Positions 6,081 through 56,877 of a DNA stretch of 64,000 nucleotides are shown one piece after another. Numbering within the stretch: the stretch's first letter is position 1; each line of letters starts with the position of its first letter. Both the position numbers and the translations under genes were made by a program. The stretch is from Eledone cirrhosa (lineage: Eukaryota): contig OZ024753.1 of assembly GCA_964016885.1 (NCBI GenBank), positions 37,634,001-37,698,000 of the forward strand, written 5' to 3'. The notes below the pieces were generated by a model, which had not been told where the DNA came from, made no database searches, and saw only the letters and a list, made by a program, of their open reading frames with translations.

Positions 6081-6188
6081 GCTCTGATGAAAACGACTGG
6101 TTTTAAACAAAGTATTGGAGATCGATTGGCGCATAATCAAGCGTATAGCGAACTCTAGACCTGCCAGATCAAAGAAACAATTGTCAGC
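6081..6188 (+). ncRNA. Type I hammerhead ribozyme motif with long stem II
   Basis: gct-CTGATGA-(83 nt)-GAAAC-aatt-GTC-agc; stem I gct/agc; palindromic stem III acaattgt. Confidence 0.6.
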
Positions 6189-7634
6189 AATGTGAATAAA
6201 GCCCTTATTGTATAGCGAACCATGTCACTCTTCTTTCTTGAATTATATATATATATTTTCACGTTTTAGAACACCCCCATTATGAACCATAATATGAGCT
6301 ACGGCTCCCTTTTCTCACTTTCCTGTATATTTTGATGAAGGATAGCGTTCGAAACGTTAAGACTCTCTTCCTACTACATCAAGCGTTAGAGTATTATATA
6401 TCTTCAATCTACTGCATTGTTTGCTTTGTTCGTTTCCGTTTACTTTTTGCACACACACACACACAAATGTGTGTGTCTGTATGCATATACATATTGGCTT
6501 ACTAAATACTTTCAGAAAATGGCACACGGTTTTGTTTTGTTTCTCTGTACCTAATATAAAGAAACTCCTTGTTGTTTGGCAAAAGTTTCTATTTAATTAT
6601 CTCTTTAATTTCAACAACAGTCACTTGTCAAAGATTATGTCTGAAATCCAGCCTGACTTACTCTGAGCAACTGTTAATATTAGACCTACTATTAGCTTAC
6701 TTCGTTTCTTTTCTAGTAAAAAGAATGACACATTTATAGCTAAAGCTTCTGAAAACAGATTTGTTAAGATTGCATTTAAATCCTTCGTCGTACATTGTAT
6801 CATTAATATTTATTTTGTAACAAACATTTAAAGTCCATTTATATATACATATATAAATATAGCGATGGCTTTCCGAAAAGGAATGGAAGAGAATGTATGT
6901 AGTAAAACAATGTTTTTAGAGAAAAATAACAGGTCCATTCATGTTGTCATCTCTTGGAAAACTGTTGATGCTGGTGTTTTGCGTATGATATACTTTATTA
7001 TAAAAGTGGATGATGGAGTGCGTCTGCCTGAAATGGAAAAAAAAAACGTTCTGTATATAGAGCTATACGTGTGTGCGTGTGTATGTGTGTGTGTTATATT
7101 TCCGTACGAAGCTAAGAGGATATGTATGTGTATATGTAAGTAAAAGAGTGTGTGTGTGCTTGTAAGTACGAAGCTGTGAGCAAACGTATGTTGATATAAG
7201 AGAGTGTGTGTATATGTACAGAGCTGTGAAGGGAAAAGTAGAGGTATATATATATATATATATATATATATATATATATATATATATATATATATATATA
7301 TATATATATATATATATATATATATATATATATATATATATATATATATATATATATATATAAATATATATATATATATATAATATTCATAATTTAAACA
7401 TGATGTTCTTTCAAAAAATGTTTCGTTTTACACCTAAATCTTGTAATAACATTTGAAATGAAAAAAAAAAGGAAATGTATATCTCTTACCTATATGCAGA
7501 TTTAGCTGGCCTTCTCCGTACTTGCATCTCATAGGAGGTTTTTCGTATGTTTTAGTAATAGGGGGCCCCATTCCTATCATAAAAAGAAACAAAATTTACA
7601 AATCAAACCTAAAAGATTCTGCTGAAGAATTCGT

Positions 7635-7945
7635 ATGCTGAAAGGTTGATAGGTTGACCAAGATATTCTCATGGAATGAACAAATGAGGTTTATTTTTAA
7701 ATATAGTCCCTGGAAAGAAACAGTGTAGTTATTAAAAAGAAGTGTTGAAGTTAATGCATGCAAGATTTCACAGCTCTAGCATCACTCCTTTACAATCAGA
7801 CTATGAACTTGTTCACTTTTCACCTGACCCTCGTAGTCCCTGGCATGAAATAATGCAGTTATTTAAAAAAGAGTTAAAGTTAATGCATGCAAGATTTCAC
7901 AGCTTTAGCATCACTCCCTCATAGTCAGACTATGAGCTTTTTAGC
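7635..7945 (+). mobile_element. Mariner-like MITE remnant with an internal tandem duplication of about 130 bp
   Basis: Starts tatgctgaaaggttgataggttgaccaag; the block tagtccctgg..gcatgcaagatttcacagct..cagactatga occurs twice; a related inverted copy lies at about 46290-46445. Confidence 0.5.
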
Positions 7946-10044
7946 CTATCCTCATACGTGGATTTATCTGGGCTACTGGATTTACTAATGACTGGTGTTG
8001 TACACTACGTTTTTCTTTTCATAAGATTTTCTAATCTAGTTTTCAAATAAGAAATAACTCCTCCTTTTCTAATATTCAATATTTATCTTAACAGATTTGT
8101 AACATACTCTTATATACGTGTTAGGGACTTACTTACAAAAATAAACAAGAAGAAATAATATTAGGAAAATACTTTGAAAGACTAACTTATTTTTAAAGCA
8201 TGCATATGTATGTGTGCATGTATGTATATATATATATATATATATATATATATATATATATATATATATATATATATATATATATGTGTGTGTATATATA
8301 TATATATATATATATATATATATATATATATATATATATATATATATATATATATATATATATATACATATATATATATATATATATTGTAGAATTTTTT
8401 TTATTATGACAGGCTGAATGAGTTGGGGAAAACAGCCCAACGAAACTTAAGTACCTGTATATATCACTGTTGTTACTGATCATATATATATATATATATA
8501 TATATATATATATATACATACATACATAGATATTTACTACAAACAAAAACAAGACTTATGGAACATATTTTTTGCTTATGAATACATAAGTGTGCAAATA
8601 TATTAATACGGTTTCCCTTAGCGTATTGACTTATTTACTTTCAAAACAAACTTGTAAATATGATATGGATTCACAAATTGAGGCGTCGACACCTTATAAA
8701 GGTTGTGTTACACAAGGTTGAGCCGGTTTGTCAAAGGAGACTATATCACGGAGACTATATTATTGAAGTTTATGTTAGCCTACCCAAATCTTTTTTGTGA
8801 AGATTATTTTAGAATCAAACACAAATTAATGGGAGCTTGCCATTACGAACTTCATCTACTACTACTACTACTACTACTACTACTACTACTACTACTACTA
8901 CTACTACTATTATTACTACTACTACTACTACTACTTCTTTTTCTTCTTGGTTGGCTGGTTGGCTGGTTGGCTGGTTGGATGGTTAATTGGTTGGCTGGAT
9001 GATTGGATAGATAGATAGATTCAGCATGATATTGTGTATAATAAAGGCTGGTCCTAGGTTTCGGCCAGTATTGGCGCAGGCTATGTCTACCTTAATAGCA
9101 CCACCTGCATTTCTAACATTATCTATTGTCTGTTCGTGGTTTTATATTTTTTTCTTTTTAAAATTGTAATTTAGTCCTGGAAAAATTTGATAGAACAGAC
9201 ATTTATCGGAGGTGTTCAGCAGTTGTCATCCTATTTTTATATATTTATGGGTCCCGTCACACCGTACAGCACACTGCCCCCTACATCATGTGCCTTTTTA
9301 CCAGCTTATTACACTGGAACAAAGCAACATACATAGAATACAGCGTCTTGTTTAAGGACACAATACGCCGCGGGAAATCGAACTCACGACATCATGGTCG
9401 TGAACTCGCCACCCTAACCACGAAACCACACACATTCTCCATTAATGTATGATGTAGCTACAGGCTGAAGATGTTCTTTCTCACTTTTTTCTGCCATTCT
9501 TATATGTGTCTGTATTTTACTCGTCCCAATTGAATGTTATGAAAATCGACAACAGATTTCATCCTTTTTTTGTCGTATTTATGTGTATGTGTGTGTGTTT
9601 ATGTGTATGCGTGTGTGTGTGTGTTTATGTGTGTGTTTGTGAGTTATACCCGCGCCTGTGTGTTTGTGGGTGTGCGTATTTGTGTTGTGTGTGTGTTTAT
9701 GTATGTGCGTATGCGTGTGTGTTTGTGTGTGTTTGTGTGAGAATGCGTGTGTTTGTGTGTGTTTGTGTGTGTGCGAATATGTGTGTGTGTTTGTGTGTTT
9801 ACGTGCACGTGTGTTTGTGTGTGTGTTATTTCTTCTAGCCTCTTTTCTAGAAAAAAAAGGTTCTAAGCTAACCTTTTCTTCATAGACCCACCCTGAAAAA
9901 CTTTCTCAGTTCTCAGAGGTGTTGTTTTCCCACGTTAAGTGAATAAGTCTGGATTTATTTATCAAGTTGAAAACAGAATTGTGAATGCCAAATACAATGA
10001 AAGAAAACGTTTATATATATATATATATATATATATATATATAT

Positions 10045-55396: not shown

Positions 55397-56296
55397 ATGG
55401 ATAAAAAGTTGAAAAAAAACATTTTATTAAAGAAGAAGAAAAATGATATTTTACGTAAAAAGAAAATTGCAGCTAAGCGAAAGATAGAATGGATTTTTAC
55501 AGAACAACAAATGGTTGACATTTTCAACAGAAGACCATTAAGTCCTCAATTTACATACGAAACTGAAATGTATTATCGGCAGAAAACGGGTATATTTATG
55601 TCATACGTTAGTCGGCGATTGCTACTCACAGAATATCTATTAAACATTGCTGTGGTTTATATGCATCGATTTTATGTGTATAATTCATTTCAAGAGTTTA
55701 GTTATAAACTCATGGGGCCTGTCTGCTTGTATTTAGCTGCTAAAAATGACAACAAATGTATACGTATTGAACAAATGATTGTTGAAAGTCAAACATATTT
55801 TGATCAATCTCAAGATTCACATCGAAATGGAACGGTCTTTAATCAGATAATCAATGACTTTTTGCGTTACGAAGAAGCTCTCTTAGTCTGTTTAAATTTC
55901 GATTTTAACATTTTTCTACCTCATGTTCATGTTATCAGTGCATGTCAATTAATTAAAATTGATGACCAATTGATAAAGATTGCTCATCAATTGGCTACAT
56001 GTTGTTTAGTTTTGACGAATTTTTGTATCAAATATAAAGCACAAACTATCGCATGTGTGTGCATCAATTTGTTTATTAAATGGGGAAAGTGGGAGATTCC
56101 TTTGTCTACCGAAGGAAAACGATGGCATCGTTATATAGACACTTCTATGAATGATCAATTATTAGAAGAATTGGTGATGGAATTTCTTGAAATACTACAC
56201 AAGACAAACAGAGATTTTAAGGACCAATTTCCCGTTTTAACAAAGCACCAAACTGATAATACAGAGGAAGCTGCTACACCCGACGAAAATACCTGA
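55397..56296 (+). CDS. CCNT: Intronless cyclin T-like protein B (299 aa, basic N-terminal extension)
   Basis: WIFTEQQ..YRQKT..NIAVVYMHRFY..LYLAAK..PHVHV..ACVCI..KWGKWEIPLSTEGKRWHRYID..LLEELVMEFLEILHKT; AATAAA at 56545 and 56564. Confidence 0.93.
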   Translation: MDKKLKKNILLKKKKNDILRKKKIAAKRKIEWIFTEQQMVDIFNRRPLSPQFTYETEMYYRQKTGIFMSYVSRRLLLTEYLLNIAVVYMHRFYVYNSFQEFSYKLMGPVCLYLAAKNDNKCIRIEQMIVESQTYFDQSQDSHRNGTVFNQIINDFLRYEEALLVCLNFDFNIFLPHVHVISACQLIKIDDQLIKIAHQLATCCLVLTNFCIKYKAQTIACVCINLFIKWGKWEIPLSTEGKRWHRYIDTSMNDQLLEELVMEFLEILHKTNRDFKDQFPVLTKHQTDNTEEAATPDENT

Positions 56297-56729
56297 ACAT
56301 TGTTTTTACAACGATTTCAGTTAGGAAACAACAAACATTGCAAAACTATCTACATTCCATTCACTTTTATTTTACAGAACCATTAGATATAATTGTAATT
56401 TGTTAGTTCTGTACTTCAATCTTAATAATGTGATATATTTTTCCTTTTTATTCTAATTCTGCATATTATTTCTATCTCAGTACTGACATTTGATTGATTT
56501 TTAATCATTTTAACTATTCTACGTTCGTTTACATTTAGTTTTTTAATAAATTTTGTATTAAAAAATAAATGATTTTTAATTTGAATGTGATTTTGTCGTT
56601 ATTTATTTTATATATTTTTTATTTATTAATAAATATTCCCGATTATACGACTGTTCATATTTTACAATTCGGTTATAGTTTTTACTTTTATTTTGTTATT
56701 CAAATATACACATACCTATATAATAATAT

Positions 56730-56877
56730 ATATTAATTGCATTAAGACTAAATAGTGAGTTTTGTTAGCCTGGAGTTTCGCTTGTTTGTCACAGGGTCAT
56801 CAGACAAGAACATTTGGATAAACAGGCGAAACTCCAGCGTAACAAGACTCACTATTTAGCCTTAATAAAATTAATAT
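56730..56877. mobile_element. Older fold-back element with hammerhead motif
   Basis: Imperfect inverted arms; consensus of the arms is cttgt-CTGATGA-ccctgt gacaa acaggc-GAAAC-tccagc-GTA-acaag. Confidence 0.65.

Follow-up and report, generated by a model that had tools for sequence, protein, structure and literature searches.

Penelope-like elements (PLEs) of the Hydra clade carry one open reading frame (ORF) encoding a reverse transcriptase (RT) and an endonuclease (EN), with RW-K/R and DKT motifs, a CxCX5C linker, CxxC and CxH but no CCHH, and the accessible text of PMC8557442 further gives them a canonical hammerhead, (TA)n targets, an inverted truncated copy and a one-sided tail, calls them generally short (<3 kb, a descriptive and not a diagnostic trait) and names one octopus family, Hydra-1_Obim of Octopus bimaculoides. 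In the part of PMC4209133 that could be consulted, the minimal hammerheads of PLEs are described as type I motifs within pseudo-long terminal repeats (pLTRs), with a palindromic helix III, a U3-A8 variant and an additional or mismatched nucleotide at the foot of helix II; most are single motifs left by truncated PLEs, and opposite-strand pairs lie 100-700 bp apart. Two further systems bear on what follows, as far as the available sections of their reports go: PAc, a Poseidon element of Anolis, uses in vitro an AT-rich target, of which both strands are cut and extended, with uncut RNA as template and two internal start sites that bound the tail (PMC11167929), and non-LTR retrozymes are ORF-less units of 150-400 nt with one type I hammerhead, arranged head-to-tail (PMC7229834). 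Here we analysed a 64,000-nt stretch ("the window") of the 3.0-Gb genome of the octopus Eledone cirrhosa (contig OZ024753.1, positions 37,634,001 to 37,698,000), in which a preliminary description had seen a group of short, mutually dissimilar hammerhead elements beside TA tracts and had read them as non-autonomous fold-backs mobilised by PLEs. We refer to its twelve families as A to L.

Families A, B, C, D, F, G, H, J and K, nine of the twelve, are very probably the 5'-truncated 3' ends (pLTRs) of diverged RT/GIY-YIG PLEs with Hydra-clade motifs, copied from two fixed sites and each closing with a predicted type I hammerhead beside a TA tract. The window itself holds no PLE ORF, and the families were traced upstream at other loci (numbered L059 and so on), where all nine run into RT/GIY-YIG ORFs; this continuity argues that the insertions are 5'-truncated copies of autonomous elements. 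In family C, a 1.1-kb 3' untranslated region (UTR) leads back to a GIY-YIG-type EN at about ten loci, and one of these regions (L059) reads as a tandem of hammerhead, tail, 774-codon open frame, UTR and decayed second hammerhead, with a C unit of ~3.5 kb. For family B the EN lies 0.93-1.06 kb upstream in L102, L114 and L119, and also, with a deletion, in L125, while in L087 the B tail continues into the beginning of the ORF, again in tandem. Likewise, an EN was found ~1.5 kb upstream of D (Hydra-type; L062, L082, L121), ~1.5 kb upstream of F (L244, L245 and L248, i.e. three of five extended loci and none of 20 short ones), ~0.5 kb upstream of G in six of 19 loci with other distances in two more, ~0.9-1.05 kb upstream of H in five loci (L199, L212, L213, L262, L263) and ~0.2 kb upstream of K (L059, L121). 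In family J a collinear 3' UTR of 3.4-4.1 kb runs back to the EN in L080 and L154, and the unit would reach ~6 kb; across families the 3' UTRs span 0.2-4.1 kb.

The ENs of the nine linked families are only 23-50% alike, with CxxC present in all nine, CxH in eight and CxCX5C in seven (the F and K copies being frameshifted at that point), and none has CCHH. RWR, RWK or RWS together with DKT is present in C and in the N-termini at L110, L275, L061 and L248, and the B N-terminus has RWR; the N-termini examined exclude those of A, D, F, H and K. In the RT-EN ORF the EN is C-terminal and the hammerhead is canonical, which sets these elements apart from Naiad, defined by an N-terminal EN and no canonical hammerhead. 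The proteins of C and D matched no family in a Pfam scan; homologs carry PF26215 and in one case PF01541. The families resemble the published Hydra clade in ORF layout, RW-K/R and DKT, CxCX5C, hammerhead, (TA)n targets, inverted copy and tail, but differ in comprising at least nine families of such diverged ENs, in a very high copy number, in units of 3.5 to ~6 kb, and in tails of ~70-170 nt against the 30-40 nt given in the accessible part of PMC8557442. Our literature searches did not turn up the hammerhead scale, the length of helix II or the strict pairing of ends, whereas Hydra PLEs, their hammerheads and their (TA)n targets were known.

The ends and pairing of the insertions were evaluated in 954 kb, comprising 89 loci and the window, from which two segmental copies of the window had been dropped. 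Families B, C, D, E, H and J each have two fixed 3' ends, bimodally placed 17-72 nt (tail-less, or short, arms) and 88-205 nt (tailed, or long, arms) past the cut site, and 47 of 48 head-to-head pairs join one tail-less to one tailed arm (p 2e-13 against the 50% expected if independent). In targeted, partly overlapping loci the same combination made up 66 of 68 pairs, with four more pairs having other ends. The junctions are tight (gap of -8 to +22 in 37/48), and the 5' ends are scattered with no fixed element length. Of 47 pairs, 20 have the tail-less arm extending further 5' and nine the tailed arm, while in 18 the two arms end no more than 3 nt apart (eight of these calls being limited by the reference length); in L060 the tail-less arm is longer by an ORF-length stretch. 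Seven tailed arms do not get past the cut site, ending close to the short start, and form pairs that barely overlap, as expected if each met the other cDNA on the same RNA. Within a pair, C arms differ by 4.7%, compared with 10.0% between pairs (p 3e-7). The cut site is where just two of 145 arms end; the ends of the insertions are therefore not set by cleavage, and the pile-up of 5' ends at that position, the expected sign of cleavage in vivo, was not seen. This combination of one long and one short end, both off the cut site, is a sharp rule that thousands of short insertions here offer for testing in vitro and that bears on how PLEs acquire their inverted shape and one-sided tail.

Several smaller features accompany these ends. 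In C, 55 of 70 arms end 20-50 nt to the 5' side of the cut site, irrespective of the start used (in the window, for example, at 10100-10120 and 10615-10630), as do 16 of 20 in E, which would place a copying stop inside helix or loop II. A small hairpin of RCTC...GAGY type lies directly behind the short end in several families (e.g. window 10167-10200; L059, L087), and recurs behind the long end of B and C, though not of E; 3-nt TA-like microhomology at the long end shows the same distribution, the end counts of D, F, G, H, J and K having been set aside because TA in the references dominated them. The tail hairpin is visible as a motif only, being no more stable than shuffles (z -1.8 to +1.6, 11 tails), and no A-to-G polarity was found in nine window palindromes. 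A search for the C core with the canonical pattern within 38 nt produced 22 joins that were due to chance or chimeric; the true core, in which position 8 is A, is found 54-56 nt upstream. For G and I, exact patterns had matches in the window only, as the stretches chosen lay outside the element body.

In the mechanism that we propose, with PAc as a precedent, the endonuclease would cut both strands of (TA)n and both ends of the cut TA repeat would prime copying of an uncut element RNA, with one RT starting at the distal site and copying the tail, and another starting at the proximal site. Both cDNAs would usually stop early, often inside helix or loop II, and their two ends would then be fused head-to-head via microhomology or a few added bases. 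The hammerhead would probably trim or circularise tandem transcripts, often as a dimer via the palindromic helix III, a role suggested by analogy with the precedents in the accessible portions of PMC4209133 and PMC6765202. In PAc the start site was strand-independent in vitro, whereas here each site is used once per insertion in all but one pair, although the two belong to different clades (PMC11167929, available text).

The opposing orientation of two arms has been proposed to arise in rotifer Penelope by self-priming (snap-back) of a single cDNA or of the antisense template (PMC3846280, in the part available), and applied here this origin would account for the tight junctions, for the subfamily variants shared between arms and for the 18 pairs whose arms end within 3 nt. 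However, a tail-less arm that outreaches its partner excludes snap-back from one tailed cDNA as the source of those 20 pairs, including the one in L060, and the seven barely overlapping pairs and a second arm that ends at a fixed family-specific site also speak against it, which leaves self-priming improbable as the general source of the palindromes. The families might instead all be independent non-autonomous ribozyme elements, either retrozymes or fold-backs like miniature inverted-repeat transposable elements, mobilised in trans. This reading, the one in the preliminary description, is favoured by the lack of a PLE ORF in the window, by an ORF-less repeating unit in family I (below) and by the E loci (30 short, 12 extended), in none of which shared sequence reaches an ORF. 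The scattered 5' ends, the lack of a fixed length and the family-specific distances at which nine families reach ORFs make it very unlikely as a general account, and at least two loci apiece refute it in the case of B, C, D, F, G, H, J and K. Finally, long-read or assembly artefacts could in principle generate fold-backs, and AT-rich sequence, which pairs easily, could give chance hammerhead-like folds; one palindrome is indeed 99.8% perfect. This is strongly disfavoured by the shuffle controls given below, by arms that differ by 5-22% in several pairs, by the asymmetric fixed ends, and by the many different E arm-to-arm joints held in contigs of two other runs (which may come from the same animal).

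We therefore return to truncated, Hydra-type PLEs copied from two sites as the preferred explanation, against which a number of observations weigh. The A link is seen at one locus only (L102, with a Hydra-type EN 871 nt upstream of the hammerhead), no ORF lies upstream of E in the loci searched, where shared sequence extends up to ~1.1 kb, and L has no ORF link among its four matches. The Hydra-clade assignment is motif-based, and the units of ~3.5 kb and an estimated ~6 kb exceed the published size. In the unbiased set 64 arms are unpaired, within-pair similarity falls short of significance in B (p 0.44) and E (p 0.06), and such similarity could alternatively stem from gene conversion within palindromes; in vitro, the two strands did not differ in the start site used by PAc, according to the accessible text of PMC11167929. 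On the ribozyme side, folding energy fell below z -2.7 in three of 11 isolated motifs only, most C copies in the targeted loci have a C3.A8 mismatch (one subfamily), and B has A at core position 4 in 14/14 sample matches and at window 10388, 19705 and 19818, with intact helices. Judged from its sequence, the A at this position of B is a fixed core variant, and the motifs of some families (B with A4, C with C3.A8) may be weak or dead as ribozymes. A supposed link of E to an EN at 2.8 kb was rejected, as the two ENs differ and the shared sequence ends ~1.1 kb upstream.

The type I descriptor that we used consisted of the core boxes, a helix I of >=3 contiguous bp, a helix III of >=2 bp and a bulge-tolerant helix II with a span of <=130 nt. 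It returned 11 matches from seven families in the window, compared with a mean of 0.027 (maximum 1) in 150 block dinucleotide shuffles that retained the TA tracts and used the same score cut. As the descriptor had been tuned on the window, the fair test is a sample of 79 evenly spaced 10-kb loci (790 kb, neither strictly random nor length-weighted), where 89 matches were spread across 43 loci against a mean of 3.0 (maximum 6) in 20 shuffles. This confirms that the predicted type I motifs are genuine and above chance. Extrapolated to the genome the total is 3.4e5 motifs (bootstrap 2.4-4.4e5; fold-back arms counted separately and ~3% false matches), and Hydra-type ORF matches occur in 20 of the 79 loci and cover 3.6% of bases. 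The sample matches form 40 sequence clusters, including 29 singletons and one that wrongly fuses B and D. Core positions 3 and 8, which the descriptor leaves unconstrained, were C-G in 74, U-A in 14, U.G in one and C.A in none, and helix III was fully palindromic in 42 of 89 matches but in 0 of 60 shuffled matches. Helix II spans 12-116 nt and helix III extends up to 6-8 bp, which distinguishes many of the motifs from the minimal PLE hammerheads whose features they otherwise share. Position 4 is U in all families except B (A) and the window copy of I (C, with U in six relative arms), and a full family C copy folds thermodynamically into a three-way junction.

Seven of the 12 window families pass the descriptor, A and C do so via relatives elsewhere, and G, K and L were recognised by eye alone. 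The window copies of A (decayed helix II; a relative in L102 passes), G (bulged helix I; 39 relatives at 98-99%), K (2-bp helix II) and L fail it, and those of C are hammerhead 3' halves only, with the complete motif found in relatives. A 33-mer of H has 10,602 genome matches, and L has four, three of them local segmental copies. Rfam largely misses these hammerheads: among the 150 listed of 480 window matches there was no hammerhead, with TA-driven miRNA noise among the rows listed, and Hammerhead_1 matched 18 of 74 scored candidates, all outside the window, so that dozens of natural hammerhead variants are missed. PLEs with a CCHH-type EN in L062 (-), L066 (+) and L125 (+) have their own hammerheads 0.2-0.9 kb downstream, and other PLE clades thus also add to the hammerhead load of the genome.

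Of the 83 sample matches that could be scored, 61 have a TA tract (>=6 TA units) <=200 nt downstream of the cut site, compared with 24 that have one upstream and with 15% of random sites, and in 72 the tract is <=300 nt away (all PLE clades pooled); adjacency to TA is genuine and directional, favouring the downstream side. In the window 12% of the sequence consists of TA tracts, as opposed to 3.7% across 20 loci spaced evenly on C1 and C2.

The preliminary description was sound on many points: every site that it named is present on the strand given, as are the five palindromes it quoted, and the origin from PLEs, the targeting of TA, the inverted pLTRs, the palindromic helix III and the diversity all find support, together with the motif excess over shuffles and the linkage of nine of the 12 families to PLE RT/GIY-YIG ORFs. 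Its term "non-autonomous" does not hold in general, since nine families are 3' stumps of ORF-bearing Hydra-type PLEs, and it is likely to apply to I; "minimal" does not suit the long helices II and III of many motifs; in the window, A, F, G, H and I occur as lone arms and not as fold-backs; and simple-repeat masking, said to hide the elements, leaves them detectable by BLAST.

Family I is the only one shown to consist of an ORF-less 316-nt unit with one hammerhead in head-to-tail order. In 19 loci it has no same-strand Hydra EN upstream and no ORF, and its tail passes into a following copy, the period being 315-316 nt in four of eight loci and 332 in one more (these loci being best matches and so biased towards long copies), while in L289 one arm passes two cut sites and the longest copy seen is ~1.3 units. 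I is likely an ORF-less 316-nt retrozyme-like derivative of deletion type, which would be moved in trans by the same PLE machinery. It shares an ORF-less ~300-nt unit, one hammerhead and head-to-tail order with the non-LTR retrozymes (PMC7229834 and preprint 10.64898/2026.07.22.740005, as far as accessible), but differs in forming dispersed insertions of <=~1.3 units with PLE-type ends in (TA)n instead of long arrays. These ends tie a retrozyme-like family to PLE enzymes, a link proposed but not demonstrated in the published work that was available in part. Hammerhead repeats also occur in L073:6492-8119 (560-570 nt apart, three on one strand) and L119:5268-6069 (467 nt apart), which by their spacing are candidate further retrozyme-like arrays.

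Published hammerhead loads are lower: 4,000-9,000 were called remarkable in the consulted part of PMC4209133 and the axolotl was credited with 126,247 in that of PMC7229834, both exceeded by the ~3e5 estimated here, although the descriptors differ. The accessible text of a paper on Octopus vulgaris repeats (PMC13282606) lists 31 recently active Penelope-like families and does not contain the words hammerhead or ribozyme. Our literature searches, with subscription papers, Repbase and some supplements outside reach, found no cephalopod hammerhead survey and no quantified end-pairing rule. Three claims, taken jointly, seem to us evenly poised between holding and failing: that this genome has the largest hammerhead load counted (~3e5, >40 families, long helix II); that one uncut RNA is copied twice from two hairpin-marked start sites onto cut (TA)n ends; and that the 316-nt retrozyme uses the same signals, which would be direct evidence that Hydra-clade enzymes move animal retrozymes.

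Table 1. Hammerhead-bearing insertions of families A to L in the window (positions are those of the window).
Family	Feature	Position	Strand	Description
A	stump	6071..6243	+	core 6084; helix II decayed, spanning 81 nt; stump reaches the short end at a TA tract
A	second decayed copy	3671-3775	-	
B	insertion	10277..10448	+	piece of inverted tail fused to a tail-less arm; its hammerhead (core 10388) has A at position 4
B	fold-back	19645..19963	.	hammerheads 19705- (tail-less) and 19818+ (tailed)
C	fold-back	10046..10242	.	tail-less arm (-) head-to-head with tailed arm (+, 80-nt tail); hammerhead 3' halves only
C	fold-back	10491..10680	.	tailed arm -, tail-less arm +
C	insertion	53294..53433	.	inverted tail fused to tail-less arm
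C	further stubs	53867-53907; 54012-54052		
D	fold-back	19299..19570	.	hammerhead core 19472+; tail on - arm
D	further insertions	28890-29229; 30001-30216		
E	fold-back	13140..13395	.	hammerheads 13272-, 13324+; tail on - arm
F	tailed stump	28575..28795	+	hammerhead core 28629; helix I 10 bp
G	stump	29313..29582	-	core 29471; helix I bulged, helix II long; 35 nt from the tip of its own tail, inverted, precede it
H	tail-less stump	30433..30594	-	hammerhead core 30529
I	part of ORF-less 316-nt head-to-tail unit	40688..40931	-	one hammerhead, core 40853
I	shorter copy	4076-4190	+	
J	fold-back	41214..41770	.	417-bp palindrome plus 140-nt tail; hammerheads 41415-, 41429+; helix II span 115 nt
K	hammerhead	53454..53530	-	core 53519; weak (2-bp) helix II; at TA tract
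K	inverted duplicate	~54380-54418	+	core 54393+; inside larger inverted duplication 53497-54415
L	old fold-back	56690..56938	.	arms 78% alike; hammerhead core 56803-, decayed

The larger inverted duplication that includes the K pieces is ~410 bp long, is centred on a TA tract, has nested C and K pieces and also occurs in L070 and L075. The same two loci have copies of two intronless cyclin-T1-like ORFs, at 50066-51067 (-) and ~55400-56296 (+) in the window; the second matches Pfam CycT2-like_C, and the two named best matches of a cyclin-T1-like ORF of the window are in Octopus, at 59-62%. The cyclin-T1-like segment is repeated at least three times nearby, which makes a retrogene expansion possible. 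At 39499-39940 (+) lies the C-terminal end of a non-LTR element with the look of a restriction-like endonuclease and (TACA)n flanks, which may be Dong/R4-like. Two short exon-like stretches at ~44795-44860 and 45300-45410 (+), the second of which enters an in-frame stop, may resemble a TM9SF gene.

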